Below, piece after piece: positions 4,596-11,792 of a stretch of 64,000 nucleotides of DNA (positions within the stretch are counted from its first letter, which is position 1; each line of letters begins with the position of its first letter). The notes under the pieces are model-generated. The model ran no database searches. It was not told where the DNA came from and was given only the letters and a program-made list of their open reading frames with translations. This DNA is from a bacterium (GTDB lineage: Bacteria > UBA8248): NCBI GenBank assembly GCA_965200245.1, contig CBDATS010000005.1:480001-544000 (forward strand), in the 5' to 3' direction. The translations under genes were made by a program, and so were the position numbers.

Positions 4596-4971
4596 CGGGA
4601 AATCTTACCCCGTCCCCAGGTCTTTGGGAAGCCGGAGCATCGGCAATTTGAGGATTGCGACTCGCAAGTAAGGCAACCATGCTAACATCATGGCCTTAGA
4701 AGTATCCCATTCAAAAGGCCTGCGAAACGATGCGCAAAGACAATATCAGCGACTGAGCCACTTCTGGGGCGAGGGCGCAAAAAACTGCAAGATATATGGC
4801 AGGAATAGTTTGCGGCCTTTTCCAAAAGCACCGGAATCATTTTCCCGCTTCTCTAGCATTTGCGAATCGCTAATTCACAGCAAATAAGGTTAGAATGAAC
4901 CTTTCAAACATTTGGTCGAGTGAAGCTCCGGTTCTTTGTTTTGCAACATTTCAGGAAAGGCCATCGGAAGC

Positions 4972-5835
4972 ATGTCGTTTTCCAAAGTCGTCGAACTCAA
5001 AGAGGGGAAGGTCTACGCCCTCCACAACACGTTTCCCCTGGACGGGCGTATTAGCGCATACCCCATCAGTGCGCGCGGTCACAGCGTATCGAACTGCTAT
5101 CTCCTGAAAGAAGATAACGGAGCCCTCCTGCTCGACACGGGCTACGCCGCCCATGAAGCCGAAATTCTGATGCAACTCGAATCCATCCTCGAACCGACCA
5201 CGCCCCTGATAATGCTTCCGCTTCGCATCAACGAATTCATGTCGGTCGGCAACGCCATGGCGATTGCCAAGCGCTTCAATGTGGTGGAATGCCTGGCTCC
5301 GGTGCCGGAGATCAATGATTGGCTGGAGTTCGAAGCGCTGGAACCAGGCGGCAGGAACAACGGCAACCCCGTTCTTTCCACCACGATACTGAAGCCGCTC
5401 CATCCTATCGAACTTGGTGACAGATACATTGAGGTGATGAACGCGCCGATTCGCCTCATCAGCACGCGGTGGATATACGATGCGGCCACGCGCACCCTGT
5501 TTTCTTCGGACATGTTCAGCCATCTCTGGGCGGAAAAAACGGAGGGCCCCTGGATACTGGATGAGGATGAGGTAACGACGACATCTTTCGTTCGCTCGTT
5601 CCTGCTGAACACACGCTACTGGTGGCTTGAGGGCGCGCGGACAGATTCCATACGAAAAGGTATCGCAGAAGTTTTCGAGCGCTACGATATAGAAACCATT
5701 GCCCCGGGCTACGGCGCCATCCTGCACGGGCGCCATCTTGTCGAACAGCAATTCGCCGTGCTGGACGAGGTTCTGGCGGATCTTGATCGGAGTATTGTCA
5801 AGCCGGGGTACGTTGCACTTGGCCTGGAGAGATAG
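4972..5835 (+). CDS. MBL-fold protein (flavodiiron/ODP-like) with degenerate metal ligands
   Basis: NCYLL...ALLLDTG, TLFSSDMF, IETIAPGYG. The HxExDH motif is replaced by LRINEFMS and the PxHG His by Tyr. Confidence 0.65.
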   Translation: MSFSKVVELKEGKVYALHNTFPLDGRISAYPISARGHSVSNCYLLKEDNGALLLDTGYAAHEAEILMQLESILEPTTPLIMLPLRINEFMSVGNAMAIAKRFNVVECLAPVPEINDWLEFEALEPGGRNNGNPVLSTTILKPLHPIELGDRYIEVMNAPIRLISTRWIYDAATRTLFSSDMFSHLWAEKTEGPWILDEDEVTTTSFVRSFLLNTRYWWLEGARTDSIRKGIAEVFERYDIETIAPGYGAILHGRHLVEQQFAVLDEVLADLDRSIVKPGYVALGLER

Positions 5836-5843
5836 GAGCGAGC

Positions 5844-6602
5844 ATGAACCCACTGCCCCGTGAAATCTCTCCGGGCGTCTTCTGGCTCGGTGACTGCCTT
5901 GTGCAGCACTCGCAAGGGAAAATCTATCACTCCTACAACGCGGCCTTCCTCGTCATCGGCACTGAGGCATCCATGCTTGTAGAGACGGGACATCCCAAGG
6001 ACTTTCCCATCATCGAGCATCAGATGAGAGATATTCTCTCCAAAGGAGGAGGCCCGCTCAAACACCTGTTCCTTACCCATCAGGAAACCCCCCACTCGGG
6101 CGGTCTAGGCCGCGTTCTCGACAGATACCCCGACCTTACCATCCATGGGGACATGTCCGACTACCATCTGGCGTTCCCCCAACACGAGAACCGTTTCCAA
6201 GAGATGCGCGTCGGGGAGACCATAGACTTGGGAGACTCCCAGTTCATGGCCGTGGAACCCATAATCAGGGACCTGAGAAGTTCTCTGTGGGGTTTTGAAA
6301 CAAAAGGACGCGTCCTGTTCCCCGGAGACGGCTTTGCCTACAGCCACTACCATACGGACGGGCATTGTGGGATGTTTGCCGAGGAGGCCACCTCTCTGGA
6401 TCTGGTCGACGTGCTGGGTGTGTTCGCGGAACGCGCCCTGTTCTGGACCACCTTTACCGATATGAACATATACGCCGACAAACTGGAAGAACTGATGGAA
6501 TATCTGGGTGTCGAAGTAGTCGCGCCGACACACGGCCTTCCCATACGAGACATTGCACGCACGATGCCCAAGGTAAGAGAAGGCCTGATCCGGGGCGACT
6601 GA
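5844..6602 (+). CDS. MBL-fold metalloprotein (flavodiiron/ODP-like)
   Basis: PREISPGVFWLG, YNAAFLV, LVETG, FLTHQETPHSGGL, VLFPGDGF, VAPTHG. Confidence 0.75.
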   Translation: MNPLPREISPGVFWLGDCLVQHSQGKIYHSYNAAFLVIGTEASMLVETGHPKDFPIIEHQMRDILSKGGGPLKHLFLTHQETPHSGGLGRVLDRYPDLTIHGDMSDYHLAFPQHENRFQEMRVGETIDLGDSQFMAVEPIIRDLRSSLWGFETKGRVLFPGDGFAYSHYHTDGHCGMFAEEATSLDLVDVLGVFAERALFWTTFTDMNIYADKLEELMEYLGVEVVAPTHGLPIRDIARTMPKVREGLIRGD

Positions 6603-6634: not shown

Positions 6635-7033
6635 CTAGACATCCTCCACCAGTTCCCAGAGCGTACCCATTGTGCTCTTGGGCTTGATGAAGGCGATGAG
6701 GTGCCCGCCAAAACCGGGCCGCGACTTTTCATCTATCAATTCGAAGCCCTGCGCCTTCATCTCGGCAAGAACACCGTCGATATTCTTGACGTCGAAGGCG
6801 ACATGATGGAGACCCTCGCCTCGCTCTTCGATGAATCTGGCGAGAGGCGAGTCATCCCTGATGGGTGAGATGGGTTCGATGAGATCACCTCCCAGGTCCA
6901 GCATGGCCAGATCAGTTGCACCGTCGGCAGAAGTTTCCCGCGCGAGCAGTTTCGCGCCCATGCTCTTATAGAGAGTGATAGCGGCATCCATGTCTTTCAC
7001 CGCGACGCCTATGTGATGAAATTTGTTGAACAT
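6635..7033 (-). CDS. methylmalonyl-CoA epimerase-like VOC family protein
   Basis: HHIGVAVKD, IEPISP, RFIEERGEGLHHVAF, IAFIKPKSTMGTLWELVE. Confidence 0.8.
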   Translation of the reverse strand: MFNKFHHIGVAVKDMDAAITLYKSMGAKLLARETSADGATDLAMLDLGGDLIEPISPIRDDSPLARFIEERGEGLHHVAFDVKNIDGVLAEMKAQGFELIDEKSRPGFGGHLIAFIKPKSTMGTLWELVEDV

Positions 7034-7254
7034 TTTTGAATTCCTCCCGACTCGGCTCGGCGTCGGGACACTCCCATCGCCGCATCGGCCATTCGATGAT
7101 TTAATGACAATCTGTTTAGCAGGCTTGCTTGAATTCTACAATCAAACCTACCGATTCCAAACACTCGAAACTATACTTGGCGCAGCATATGTCGTATCCT
7201 GCGCGAATCGACGCCATAATCAGCTCTGCTTATCCATATATGAGGAGAACATCC

Positions 7255-7818
7255 ATGCAAGAAGACCCCATCGACGGACACTCCACCTCCATCGTGCCTG
7301 GTGAGCGCGTCATCGACAAGCCGGAACTTCCCCGTGGAGGGCTTTATACCGACAACACCGTCCACACCGAGATGTATGAAGGCTCCCTGCAGTTGAAACG
7401 CGGCACGGCGGGCGATTTCGAGATTTTCTGTGACGAGGGGGCGCACATTGGCGGCACGGCCCAATACCCCACGCCGATGGCCTATCTCGCCATGGCGACG
7501 GGATTCTGACTGCTTACCCAGGTGTCGCGGTACGCGCACATGATGAAAATGCAGATCAAGGGAGCGAGCGTCTCGGTGCGTTTCCGAAAGTTGCTTGGCG
7601 GCTCGGTGCTTAAAGGCACCGTGTTCAACAAGTGGGAGGCTGTGGACACACATCTTAAAATCGAATCAGACGAGCCGGCAGAGAGGCTCGCTCACCTGAT
7701 AAAGAATGCCAAGAATGGATGTTTCGCCGAGAGTTTGATCACCGAGCCGGTGCCACTTCACTCCACCGTGGAGGTGAACGGCGAACCCTTCCAGATAGAG
7801 GGCGTCACGGCGGATTAA
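7255..7818 (+). CDS. OsmC/Ohr-family selenoprotein (Sec at TGA 7507-7509)
   Basis: GAGGAG RBS then ATG 7255. Track ORFs 7129-7509 and 7522-7818 are in one frame, separated only by TGA. Read-through gives DEGAHIGG...PTPMAYLAMATGF-U-LLTQVSRYA...KNGCFAE, with U at the first OsmC catalytic Cys and the second Cys intact. Confidence 0.88.
7522..7539 (+). promoter_or_regulatory. candidate bacterial SECIS element (OsmC-like gene)
   Basis: GUG(U)CGCG-GUA-CGCG-CAC hairpin starting 13 nt after UGA, with a bulged U and a GU-containing apical loop at about +20 to +23. Geometry resembles the E. coli fdhF SECIS. Confidence 0.7.
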
Positions 7819-7840
7819 CCCCCAGAATGGAGTTATTTTG

Positions 7841-8299
7841 ATGGAATACTTCAACGCATCAGATGACATCGCTTTCGGCTCGCAACCCGAACCTGCGGAT
7901 TTGAAGACCCTCGCCGAAAACGGGGTCAAGACCATCATCAACACCCGCTTCCCCGAGGAAGACCAGGGCGACCTCCCGCCCGAGCGTGCCAAAGTCGAAG
8001 CAAAGAAGCTAGGGATGCGCTATGTGAACATCCCTGTTTCGCCGGTCGAGTTCAGTCCAGCCTCACTTGCCGAGGTGAACCGCGCGCTCACGGAAGCGAA
8101 GGCCCACGGGCCCGCGTTCGTACACTGAAAGGCAACGGGGCGGGCCGGGATTTGCTCGCTGAATCATCTGGCGGACGAGAACGACTGGACAGCGCAGGAG
8201 ATGGAGCAGGCGGCCGACGCCACCGGTTTCGACTGGCGCGACGCGCCGCTCGCGCCAAAGTACCGCGAGTTCTTCTCAAGGAGACCCCAAGGGGAGTAA
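7841..8299 (+). CDS. DUF442/TIGR01244-like rhodanese (PTP-fold sulfurtransferase) selenoprotein (Sec at TGA 8126-8128)
   Basis: GSQP...DL..LA..GVKTIINTR...E and GMRYVNIPV, then PAFVH-TGA-KATGRAG, with U at the C of the HCx4R loop. The frame stays open 56 more codons including AADATGFDW (DUF442-like C-terminus) to TAA 8297-8299; 152 aa total. Confidence 0.82.
8136..8158 (+). promoter_or_regulatory. candidate SECIS element (DUF442 gene)
   Basis: CGG(G)GCGGG-CCGGGA-UUUGCUCG can fold into a G-U-rich stem with a G-containing loop at about +17 to +22 from UGA. Weaker than the OsmC hairpin. Confidence 0.4.
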
Positions 8300-8488
8300 C
8301 TCTCGCATATCCTCGCATTTGCAGTCATGATCGCGCCTGTAAATTCGTGTCTCCTCACCTTGTTTCCGGCGAGGGGGAAATATGTACCTTCGAACAAAGC
8401 AAATATTGATACTACTTGCCTTGGATATTTGAGGGTTCTATAATCTCTTAACTTTCCAGACTTTCCGGGTGGCCGAGGAGGCGAGTAC

Positions 8489-8692
8489 TTGATCCGTAAA
8501 GGTCGTATGTTTCTGCTTGGCGCACTTGTCTGTTTTCTCGTTTTTTTCAGCAGCGTGGCGATAGGCGCCGCGGGCTTCGGCGTAGTGCTCGACGACGTGC
8601 CGGAGATGCTGACCCTTTTGGTCGCTGTGCTTCTGTTCGTGGCCGCTGTTTTGATGCTGGAAACAGCAGAAAATCGCAGCACCGACATCTGA
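8489..8692 (+). CDS. small two-helix membrane protein upstream of TRAP operon
   Basis: GAGGAGG RBS, TTG start, two hydrophobic segments; co-oriented with dctP. Confidence 0.6.
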   Translation: MIRKGRMFLLGALVCFLVFFSSVAIGAAGFGVVLDDVPEMLTLLVAVLLFVAAVLMLETAENRSTDI

Positions 8693-8735: not shown

Positions 8736-9890
8736 ATGGTGGATCAGAAGGTGAGAGAAGAGATCGCTTCAGTCGAACGCCGCAATTTCCTCAAGTTGGC
8801 AGGTGCAGGCGGTATAACGGCCGCGCTTGTGGCCGCCGGGACCGGGGTGCTCTCCTCAAGCAAGGCCTCGGCTTAGACGGCCAAGGAGGAAGCCCAGCGC
8901 AGGCGCACCGCGAAATACACGATGACCATGGCGACCGCCTATGTGCTTACGGCGGACCGCAGCTATCCTATCATGCAGCTCGACTTCAAGGAGAATATCC
9001 AGAACGCCACCAACGGCAAGGTTTACGTCAAGCTGGCGGCGGGCGGCCAACTGGGCGTCGGTTCGACGCTGGCCCAGAAAGTACAAAGCGGCACGATTCA
9101 GGCGGCCCAGCATTCGCTGTCGAATTTTGCCCCTTTCGCTCCTGTCGTCGACCTGATCAACCTGCCCTATCTTTGCGGCGCCAACCAGCGCTTCGTGAAT
9201 CTGGTGACCTCCGATCACTGGAAAAAAACCATTCACCCGAAGGTGGAGGCGAGAGGATTCAAGCCACTCTACTATATCGTCATCGATCCGCGTGTCGTAG
9301 CGGTCCGCAAGGGTGGGGCAGGCGCGGTCATTAAGCCAGCGGATCTGAAAGGTGTGAAGTTCCGGGTACCGGGCTCGAAAATGCTGCAGCAATACTATCG
9401 CCTGGTCGGCGCCAACCCGACACCGGTCGCCTGGGGAGAGACACCCTCGGCAATCAAACAGGGCGTGGCGGACGCGCTCGACCCGGCTGTCGGCGCGCTC
9501 TTCGTCTTCGGCTTCAAGGAGATATTAGGCCATGTGACCTTCACACAGGCGGTTCCGGATAGCCAGGTCTTCTCGTGTAATCTCAAATGGTTCAACTCGC
9601 TCCCCAGCGACGTGAAGGACGGAATCGAATTCGCATCGGGGATCACGTCGCAGCAGAACCTCGCCAAGGTGCCAGCGGCGCGCAATTATGCGATGGCGGA
9701 ACTCAGGAAGTCCGGCGTTCAGTTCCACTCGCTCAGCAAAAAGCAGTTGGCGGTCTGGAAAGAGGCGGGCGGATACCAGCGATCCGAGTGGGACGGCTTC
9801 AAGAAAAAGCTGGCTGGCTCCATGGATTCGTTCAATAAACTGGTCGAAGCCGCCGACACGCAGAGCCGCTATTACGTTCACGACGCCTAA
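8736..9890 (+). pseudogene. dctP: TRAP substrate-binding protein (DctP family, Tat signal) with in-frame TAG
   Basis: ATG 8736, Tat motif ERRNFLK, signal ends ASA, then TAG (8874-8876) at the first mature residue. The frame continues into GGQLG, PADLKGVKFRVPGS, GANPTPVAWGE. Confidence 0.8.
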
Positions 9891-9891
9891 T

Positions 9892-9931
9892 CAGCGCGGG
9901 CCCGGCGGCGGGTGCCGCCGGGCCCGCGCTG
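9892..9931 (+). other. perfect 18-bp GC stem-loop between dctP and dctQ (mRNA stabiliser or attenuator)
   Basis: CAGCGCGGGCCCGGCGGC-GGGT-GCCGCCGGGCCCGCGCTG directly after the dctP stop; no long U tract. Confidence 0.75.
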
Positions 9932-9961
9932 TTCTGTAAAACTCCGGGAGGAGCGGCGTCC

Positions 9962-10454
9962 TTGCTCACTTCACTGAACAGGAACATTGAGCGTCTGGCG
10001 CTGTTGTTTTTCTACGCCATGCTGGTGACCACTATGGCGGTTGAAGTCATGCGTCGTGAGGTCTTCGCCTACTCGTCAATCTGGGGCGAGGAGATAGTCC
10101 GCTACGCGTTCATTTATCTCGTCTGGATTGGTGCGGCTTCGGCGGTGCGGGAACGGGCACATATCCGCATCGACATCATCTTCAACTACGTCGGGGCGCG
10201 CACCAAGGCCTTACTTTACATTTTCGGCGACCTGGTGATGCTGGTCATCGCCGTCATCTCCGTTTGGTGGTCGTTCGAGACCGTTTCGGTTTCCTGGAAA
10301 TTCGGCTCGGTCAGCCATGGCCTTCGCCTGTCGATGGTCTGGTTTCTCGCCGCCGTACCAATTGGTTTTTCGCCTCATCCAGTCGCTCATTCGTGACATC
10401 GCAGACTTCCGCTCCGGTTCCTCCCTCTACGAGGGCACCCGGCTGTTCGACTGA
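9962..10454 (+). pseudogene. dctQ: TRAP small permease DctQ, frameshifted
   Basis: WGEEIVRYAFIYLVWIGA..AVRERAHIRID. The frame breaks at about 10366-10372; the C-terminus FRLIQSLIRDI...RLFD* is in another frame ending at 10454. Confidence 0.8.
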
Positions 10455-10474
10455 GAGACCTGGGAGAACCGCTG

Positions 10475-11792
10475 ATGCTCTGGAACCAGATGCAGCAAGC
10501 ACATCAGGAGATTGGCTGGGATTTCTACGGCCCGGTCATCTTCTTCGTCGTTCTGGTCGCGCTGGGCGGCAATCGGTGCCGGCGCGGTAGCGATGCTCCT
10601 TGTTTCGGGCGTCCTCCCCCTGTCACTACTCGGCGAGAGCCTTTTCGACGGAATCGACCATTTCGCCCTGACCGCCGTACCCCTGTTCATCCTGACAGGT
10701 GACGTGCTGGTGCGTACCGGGCTCAGCCGCAAGTTCCTTGATGTGGCGGACGCACTGACCTGCTGGGCTAGAGGCGGTTTCGGTTCCGCCACGGTGCTGG
10801 TCTGCGGGATGTTCTCTGCAATTTCGGGCTCGGATGCGGCAGGTGCCGCAGCGGTGGGCCGCATGACAATCGCGCGGCTGGTCGAATCGGGCTACCCGCG
10901 TCCCTATGCCTGCGCGCTCGTAGCGGCTGGTGCCTGCACGGGCATCCTCATTCCGCCTTCCATCGCCTATATCATCATCGGACTCGTGCTGGGAATATCC
11001 GCTGCCACGCTCTTCCAGGCGGCGTTGATCCCTGGCATCCTGATTCTTGCGTCCATTCTCATAACGAACATCATCGTGAACCGGCGCTATGCCTATGAGG
11101 GCGGTAAATTGATCTCGGCAGCCGAATGGGCCGCCGACCCCAGAAAGGCGCTCAAGAATGGCTGGTACGCCTTCATCGTGCCCGGCGTGATTTTCTGGGG
11201 AATTTTTTCGGGCCAGTTGACGCCGACCGAGGCGGGCGCGACCGCAGTGGTCGTCACAATAATCATGGGCTTCATTCTGGGGACCCTGAAGTTTTCGGAC
11301 TTCCCGGCGATGCTGGTGAGTTCAGCAAAGGTCAACGGCGTTATCCTTCCGATCATCGCCTTTTCCCTGCCGCTCGCCCAAACCATGGCGGCGCTCGGCG
11401 TACCCCAGGGTTTCGTCCATGCGGTCACGTCGATGACAGATAATCCCTATGTGCTGATCTTGCTGATGATCGATATCCTGATCGCAGCCGGATGCGTGAT
11501 GGAGACCACCCCGAACATCGTCATCCTGGCACCGATCCTCAAGCCCCTAGCCGATGAAATCGGGATGAACGAGATACAGTTCTGCGTGATGATGATCACC
11601 GCGCTCGGCGTCGGCTTCATCACGCCTCCGCTCGGTCTCAACCTGTTCGTCGTTTCCGGCCTGACGGGCGACTCGATTCTTGACATTGCCGCGCGCGCGG
11701 TGCCCTATGTCTTCTTCATGCTGCTAGTGGTATTGCTGATCGCTTATGTCCCGATGATCTCTACTGTGCTCCTTCCCGCAGCGTACAAGTAA
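10475..11792 (+). pseudogene. dctM: TRAP large permease DctM, frameshifted near the N-terminus
   Basis: N-terminus MLWNQ...VLVALG (frame of 10475) joins WAAIGAGA...AVPLFILTG...GILIPPSI...TPTEA...ITPPLGLNLFV (frame of 10512) at about 10562-10567. Confidence 0.82.

Follow-up and report, generated by a model that had tools for sequence, protein, structure and literature searches.

Here we describe two adjacent, co-oriented genes, each interrupted by a single in-frame TGA codon, in a 64,000-nucleotide stretch of DNA from a sponge-associated Nitrospinota bacterium (genome of 3.68 Mb in 15 contigs; assembly GCA_965200245.1, contig CBDATS010000005.1, positions 480,001 to 544,000 of the forward strand). 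This whole stretch is hereafter referred to as the window, and positions without a prefix are counted from its first nucleotide. Gene 1 codes for a protein of the OsmC family and gene 2 for a protein of the DUF442 family. In both, the TGA is predicted to be read as selenocysteine (Sec, U) with the help of a stem-loop resembling a selenocysteine insertion sequence (SECIS); the two Sec-encoding forms are termed OsmC-Sec and DUF442-Sec. The locus contains the following features:

7242 to 7247, + strand: Shine-Dalgarno sequence GAGGAG, 7 nucleotides before the ATG of gene 1, from reading the sequence
7255 to 7818, + strand: gene 1, OsmC-related selenoprotein of 187 amino acids with the motif GF-U-LLT (UxxT), assigned from NF041052, Pfam OsmC and genus orthologues
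7507 to 7509, + strand: UGA at codon 85, predicted Sec85, aligned with the first (peroxidatic) OsmC Cys
7522 to 7541, + strand: SECIS-like hairpin of gene 1, stem GUGU-CGCG and loop GUA, from folding; it starts 15 nucleotides after the U of the UGA
7720 to 7722, + strand: Cys156 (NG-C-FAE), second (resolving-type) OsmC Cys, invariant in the OsmC alignment and matching the GCF/YCF Cys of 3cje and 2onf
7829 to 7832, + strand: Shine-Dalgarno sequence GGAG, 8 nucleotides before the ATG of gene 2 and within the 22-nucleotide spacer
7841 to 8299, + strand: gene 2, Sec-containing DUF442 (BLH_phosphatase-type) sulfur-transferase-like protein of 152 amino acids with the motif FVH-U-KATG-R-AG, assigned from PF04273, a profile search of the PDB, an AlphaFold2 model and Foldseek
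8126 to 8128, + strand: UGA at codon 96, predicted Sec96, at the catalytic Cys site of the HCx4R loop
8139 to 8160, + strand: SECIS-like hairpin of gene 2, stem GGCGGGC/GCUCGCU and 8-nucleotide loop CGGGAUUU, from folding and codon conservation; it starts at +13 from the UGA

Gene 1 ends in a TAA at 7816-7818 and gene 2 in a TAA at 8297-8299, and the spacer between them (7819-7840) is 22 nucleotides long. Each frame contains one in-frame TGA and no further lesion, and translation with table 11 splits the region into four open reading frame (ORF) pieces. A preliminary description of this DNA had proposed exactly this arrangement: two co-oriented genes 22 nucleotides apart, each with a TGA on the catalytic Cys of its family, in otherwise intact frames that standard gene callers would break up. 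All of these points stood up to analysis. No terminator-like site was found between the two genes, and no sigma-70-like promoter on the + strand upstream of gene 1.

By sequence, gene 1 is a member of a known family of OsmC-related selenoproteins. It scores 167.2 bits against the NCBIfam model NF041052, 'OsmC-related (seleno)protein' (cut-off 95), and 47.3 bits against Pfam OsmC, and it carries the UxxT motif as U-L-L-T. When aligned with the OsmC-like structures 3cje and 2onf, U85 and C156 correspond to the first and second conserved Cys, and the pair would provide the peroxidatic and resolving residues of two-Cys OsmC/Ohr peroxidases. The full-length Cys-containing homologues P0189-P0194 carry Cys at the U85 column, and Cys156 is invariant across the same alignment. 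Zhang et al. reported an OsmC-like selenoprotein carrying UxxT from the Sargasso Sea in 2005 (available part of PMC1088965), and an OsmC-like UxxT family figures in the available part of a catalogue from 2026 that covers 119 families and subfamilies of prokaryotic selenoproteins (PMC13188914). Because of these two records and its membership of NF041052, gene 1 cannot count as hidden biology, as the preliminary description had presented it. It shares the UxxT motif, the second Cys and the NF041052 score with the known family and shows no essential difference from it; what is local are the three OsmC-Sec copies in the window genome and the DUF442-Sec gene 22 nucleotides downstream. One OsmC-family protein in the databases, P0195 (196 amino acids), reads GF-W-LL at the Sec column and loses similarity thereafter; it has the appearance of a gene call in which TGA was translated as Trp and a frameshift followed.

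Gene 2 scores 43.2 bits against PF04273 (DUF442/BLH_phosphatase; gathering score 26.1). A 60-sequence alignment was used to build an AlphaFold2 model of the protein. A profile search matched 2f46 in the PDB at 2.6e-19; a single-sequence PDB search with gene 2 returned nothing at E<=0.01. The model (mean pLDDT 93.5) recovered the DUF442 structures 3gxg/3gxh and 2f46 as top Foldseek matches (TM 0.74 for 3gxg/2f46), with TpbA and dual-specificity phosphatases ranking below them. Gene 2 is thereby predicted to adopt a protein tyrosine phosphatase (PTP)-type fold in which the nucleophile opens an HCx4R loop, and in gene 2 this loop reads H-U-K-A-T-G-R-A-G, that is, U-x4-R. Among the 149 best relatives (P0040 left out), the U96 column holds Cys in 131, Ser in 7 and Asp in 2 and is not covered in 9, giving Cys in 131 of the 140 relatives that cover the site. 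Four of the nine that fall short of it end exactly at ...FVH or ...FIH. The full-length Cys form P0033, 49% identical to gene 2, reads VFVHCKAIGRAG at the Sec site. Both genes have homologues with Cys at the TGA site, as the preliminary description had expected.

The label 'rhodanese-like' given earlier to the DUF442 protein is half right. Experiments have established DUF442 as a rhodanese-type sulfurtransferase, with Cys94 as the catalytic residue in SQRCp, the SQR of Cupriavidus pinatubonensis (available part of PMC9163753), and Cys94 there corresponds to Sec in gene 2; the fold is that of PTPs and dual-specificity phosphatases. With the DUF442/TIGR01244 transferases (the Blh N-terminal domain of Xylella and Agrobacterium and the SQR of C. 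pinatubonensis) gene 2 shares the Pfam family, the fold, the HCx4R(A/S)G loop and a length of ~150 amino acids; it differs from the Blh and SQR systems in standing alone, without an SQR, persulfide dioxygenase (PDO) or BigR context. In the rhodanese-like selenoproteins, forms 1-5 (PF00581, NF041203, NF045694), Sec likewise replaces a persulfide-forming Cys, but their fold is unrelated to the PTP-type fold of gene 2, which matched none of their models and none of the NCBIfam selenoprotein models. In the closest fused Cys relatives, DUF442 is joined to metallo-beta-lactamase (MBL) and rhodanese domains, with one AhpC/TSA and one YHS fusion. The database protein P0072 (265 amino acids) has DUF442 fused to an AhpC/TSA domain that starts at profile position 45. 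The peroxidatic Cys of AhpC/TSA presumably lies just before that position, and the P0072 ORF may represent the C-terminal part of a Sec-peroxiredoxin-DUF442 fusion whose own TGA interrupted the gene call.

The window genome has the machinery for Sec insertion, which the preliminary description had proposed to look for: selA (572.7 bits), selB (391.9 bits) and selD (338.6 bits) all score above their curated cut-offs, and the tRNA-Sec (75.9 bits, also above its cut-off) is called tRNA-SeC(tca) by ARAGORN. The selD gene (C8:72779-73741, - strand) has one in-frame TGA and is of the Sec type of selenophosphate synthetase. A further, EF-Tu-like match to the selB model (C4:226231-227400, - strand) has one TAG inside and adjoins a tRNA-like match at C4:226155-226226; its alignment probably runs past the gene end. 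Long ORFs in this genome end in TGA more often than in any other stop (855 of 1,791), so that TGA does not serve as a sense codon in general and read-through is site-specific.

Both TGA columns are invariant across the genus sample, which consists of 20 loci including that of the window, each with both genes. The ratio of nonsynonymous to synonymous substitution rates (Nei-Gojobori, genus loci) is 0.114 downstream and 0.158 upstream of the TGA in gene 1, and 0.187 and 0.164, respectively, in gene 2, bearing out purifying selection beyond the TGA. Contigs from two further studies carry the gene 1 and gene 2 stretch with 0 differences, and two metatranscriptome libraries contain 0.86-0.90 of its words with 0 differences at contig level; one RNA-library contig spans 7244-8198, across both TGAs and both genes, also with 0 differences. 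Since the genus loci, the contigs of further studies and the RNA libraries agree, the TGAs are not sequencing or assembly errors. RNA-library contigs start at 7221 and 7244, and DNA contigs continue further upstream; this no more than hints at co-transcription and at a 5' end.

Bacterial SECIS elements are stem-loops that lie shortly after the UGA and have a G in the apical loop. Hairpins of this kind start at +15 (loop GUA) in gene 1 and at +13 (loop as listed above) in gene 2, and the synonymous sites they cover are constrained: synonymous diversity across the genus loci is ~0 at codons 90-97 of gene 1 and 100-107 of gene 2, and 0.2-0.3 elsewhere. We compared codons in 41 copies of DUF442-Sec (31 distinct, protein identity down to 36%). 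TGA stands at the Sec column in all 41, with TAA or TAG in none, and codons +4, +6, +7, +9 and +10 are GGG, GCC, GGG, UGC and UCG in 39-41 of the copies; genome-wide, these codons are used for their residues at 19%, 36%, 19%, 71% and 25%, respectively. The sole variable position in the stem of gene 2 is an exchange of CGG and CGA, which converts a G.U into an A-U pair or the reverse, whereas the loop codon and the third base directly past the stem vary freely. Such a codon pattern is what would be expected of a SelB-binding element embedded in coding sequence.

DUF442-Sec is restricted in its distribution. Among 51 genomes of the phylum it occurs only in the family of the window, in six of its nine genera, with 1-2 copies per genome where present. 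The TGA is found in 57 of 57 near-full-length matches, the remaining three rows being one contig-end fragment and two weak partial matches. A scan of 185,579 species, each represented by a single genome, for the exact TGA-plus-SECIS pattern yielded 41 stretches, all in metagenome-assembled genomes, labelled Nitrospinota/Nitrospinaceae (14), 'Candidatus Tectomicrobia' (2) or only 'bacterium' (25); the pattern is specific to the SECIS of gene 2, so DUF442-Sec forms with other hairpins are missed by it. OsmC-Sec is spread far more widely (48 of the 51 phylum genomes), mostly with 3-13 copies in the family of the window (range 2-13) and 0-5 elsewhere in the phylum, and every gene 1 match among the ~150 listed has the TGA. 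Some OsmC-Sec copies lie in direct tandem (for example, G035:C46:2944-4071, G034:C69:5538-6683 and G028:C4:50678-51839). The window genome has a second DUF442-Sec copy outside the window, at C5:285646-286089 (locus L044:4147-4590, - strand), with an extra in-frame TGA ('FD*ENS') at a column that holds Trp (FDW/NW) in the 40 other copies examined; it could reflect a truncating TGG>TGA change, a fault of the assembly or a second site of recoding.

The available part of the table of the 2026 catalogue (119 families) has no entry for PF04273, TIGR01244, DUF442, Blh or a phosphatase fold (PMC13188914). Full-text literature searches found no description of a DUF442, PF04273 or TIGR01244 selenoprotein; supplementary tables lie outside the scope of such searches, and an unlisted mention there is possible. 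On Nitrospina selenoproteins they returned only BSepDB, which in its accessible part lists selenoprotein-rich genomes labelled Nitrospinota, Nitrospinaceae and Nitrospinae, and the word stem 'seleno' is absent from a 2024 comparative study of Nitrospinota. In a collection of 5.8 billion proteins, 38 of the 40 matches to gene 2 are stumps of 95 amino acids, the other two being the Cys form P0033 and a frameshifted call of 112 amino acids, and one of the stumps is labelled 'sulfur transferase domain-containing protein [Nitrospinae bacterium]'. We take the 'sulfur transferase precursor' of Wolinella to be the rhodanese-type Sud, in which case a Geobacter selenoprotein grouped with it would presumably be form 1 of the catalogued rhodanese-like selenoproteins. 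The two are tabulated side by side, the Geobacter protein as 'sulfur transferase', in the available part of PMC1242214. Judged from its sequence, gene 2 is best assigned to a selenoprotein family of its own, not catalogued before and restricted to one lineage, whose members have Sec where a Cys enzyme has its catalytic Cys.

Genes 1 and 2 adjoin in 20 of 23 genomes of the genus, with a gap of 22 to ~210 nucleotides; in another (G017) gene 2 is matched only by a fragment where a contig ends. Synteny is kept upstream across the genus (an MBL-fold gene and a divergent methylmalonyl-CoA epimerase gene), and the downstream genes differ. Elsewhere, DUF442-Sec has other neighbours: a co-oriented Transglut_core2 gene (PF13369, weakly SirB1-like) lies upstream in 11 of 16 DUF442-Sec loci examined, directly in 10 and with one gene between in L060. 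Loci of this type usually adjoin ilvD, come from several genera (L044, L047-L053, L057, L059-L061) and include that of the second DUF442-Sec copy of the window genome; genome G024 has two such Transglut_core2-DUF442-Sec cassettes. The Transglut_core2 protein may be the real functional partner of DUF442-Sec. A maximum-likelihood tree places all Sec copies and P0033 in one clade (support 100/96), in which the OsmC-adjacent copies cluster with copies from other genera that are linked to Transglut_core2 genes (100/98). This grouping suggests that one DUF442-Sec paralogue was relocated next to OsmC-Sec in the ancestor of the genus, a direction that depends on a midpoint root. The two-gene operon of the preliminary description is therefore a matter of one genus: 20 of 23 genomes there, and none of the 14 and 5 loci from other genera considered below. 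Other selenoprotein genes also form short units of two co-oriented genes (grdA-grdB, prdB-prdC, Prx with SelW-like, Prx-like with AhpD-like, Tso and SAO; available part of PMC13188914); the OsmC-DUF442 pairing is not listed in that part and is restricted to a genus.

Around the pair, two MBL-fold genes (4936-5835 and 5844-6602, + strand) resemble the diiron domain of ODP/flavorubredoxin and, by analogy, may point to a role with O2 or NO. A nearby PDO was considered as a candidate and dropped, as both of these genes match ODP/flavorubredoxin diiron domains and not PDO. The methylmalonyl-CoA epimerase gene (6635-7033, - strand; 115.7 bits vs 114.95) is divergent to gene 1. Downstream of gene 2, and ahead of a TRAP transporter operon (DctP/Q/M, 8922-11792), is a hydrophobic ORF of 67 amino acids (8489-8692, + strand) that has no family match and occurs, among the 20 genus loci, only in that of the window.

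Taken together, we consider it very probable that the two genes are genuine selenoprotein genes, probably on one transcript in the genus, with gene 1 likely encoding a hydroperoxide reductase and gene 2 likely a sulfur-transfer protein. Several observations weigh against parts of this interpretation. The folding energy of the hairpins is no better than that of shuffled sequences (z from -0.40 to +0.70; -0.40 for gene 1 and +0.66 for gene 2). Stability alone therefore proves nothing and was dropped as evidence for a SECIS; the support for the hairpin that the preliminary description had placed after each TGA is conservation. An Rfam search of 6900-8600 gave no match, and the peptide encoded by the stem, G-R-A-G-x-C-S-L, is itself conserved, so that the signal is in part a protein-level constraint. 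Gene 2 lies below curated cut-offs for TIGR01244 (45 vs 85.85), of which it is not a member by NCBI's rule though related, and for Blh (NF040641, 56 vs 625), where the match covers the N-terminal domain only and the fused MBL dioxygenase of Blh is missing. There is no OsmC-DUF442 fusion among 19 fused relatives, and no SQR or PDO near genes 1 and 2. The RNA-library contigs are no proof of a single RNA and may include DNA carry-over. Inserts split the pair in two genomes of the genus, 0.7 kb long in G009 and 6.8 kb long, with about five ORFs, in G015, and the pairing is confined to one genus.

That the TGAs are true stops, leaving pseudogenes or short products of 84 and 95 amino acids with separate downstream ORFs, is highly improbable. 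Public calls do end at the TGA, as the 95-amino-acid stumps illustrate, and TGA is an ordinary stop in the window genome. However, purifying selection downstream of the TGA equals that upstream, the TGA keeps to one column over deep divergence without ever changing to TAA or TAG, the short products would miss the second OsmC Cys and the whole P-loop, and the genome has the full Sec machinery. Instead of carrying sulfur, the gene 2 protein might act on oxyanions as a Sec-dependent member of the PTP superfamily, either a phosphatase or a reductase of the arsenate or selenite type. We regard this as unlikely. The PTP loop follows the rule Cx5R, and the C/U-x4-R loop of gene 2 is one residue below it; the nearly invariant residues of the 60-sequence alignment include no Asp that could act as a general acid, the top structure and sequence matches are DUF442 proper (2f46, 3gxg), and the fusion partners of the relatives are MBL and rhodanese domains. 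The idea draws on the fold and profile matches that follow the DUF442 entries (TpbA, VHR/DUSPs, PTPMT1), on Pfam matches of gene 2 to PTP-NADK and PTP-SAK, and on a Sec arsenate reductase family in the available part of the catalogue (PMC13188914).

A much stronger contender accepts both selenoproteins as real and regards their adjacency as an accident of one genus, the two acting in unrelated pathways and the Transglut_core2 protein being the partner of DUF442-Sec. We put its probability only a little below even. Outside the genus, an OsmC gene was found within ~4 kb of none of 14 DUF442-Sec loci, and the five loci from other genera that carry the closest OsmC orthologues (72-78% identity) have no DUF442 gene; the frequency of the upstream Transglut_core2 gene, most often beside ilvD, the tree position of the OsmC-adjacent copies and the inserts that separate the pair in two genomes all agree with it. 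An accident is harder to reconcile with a 22-nucleotide spacer that has its own Shine-Dalgarno sequence and no terminator, with the retention of the pair in most genus genomes though downstream neighbours change, with the RNA-library contig that bridges both genes, and with the fusion of one related DUF442 to an AhpC/TSA peroxidase domain in P0072.

If both genes do encode selenoproteins, SelB and tRNA-Sec would read the single in-frame UGA of each as Sec, guided by the hairpin 13-15 nucleotides downstream. In the gene 1 protein, Sec85 would attack the peroxide and Cys156 would resolve the resulting selenenic acid, most likely making it a hydroperoxide reductase. In the gene 2 protein, Sec96 would most likely take up sulfane sulfur (or selenium) as an Se-S(H) adduct, and the atom taken up would then pass to an acceptor, a thiol or sulfite. 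We favour transfer of sulfane sulfur or selenium for gene 2 because of its top matches to DUF442, the rhodanese-type activity known in that family and the fusion of relatives to MBL or rhodanese domains. The recoding signals, conservation, fold, Sec machinery and presence in RNA libraries are what the analysis shows, and insertion of Sec itself and both chemistries are what we infer. Cooperation of the two proteins is possible, at odds well short of even, and their joint action as a sulfur/selenium relay is conjecture, as the pairing is limited to one genus. In its boldest form, which we think improbable, DUF442-Sec would be the first natural selenoenzyme with a PTP-type fold and, recruited in this genus beside an OsmC-Sec peroxidase, would make up with it a relay of two selenoproteins in which a selenopersulfide on Sec96 supplies or removes sulfane sulfur and so recycles or protects the Sec85/Cys156 centre.

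The locus exposes a systematic annotation error: in the databases searched, gene 2 is held almost only as stumps and gene 1 as fragments. With DUF442-Sec, selenoproteins would gain a family whose fold is absent from the 119 catalogued ones, with a possible role for selenium in DUF442-type handling of sulfane sulfur, and the highly conserved SECIS of gene 2 provides a ready search pattern for DUF442-Sec genes. The relay, if it exists, would tie the detoxification of peroxides to that of persulfides in nitrite oxidisers that live with sponges. Nitrospinota have a major part in marine nitrite oxidation, and Sec-based peroxide or sulfur chemistry across the lineage would bear on their trace-element needs and stress physiology.

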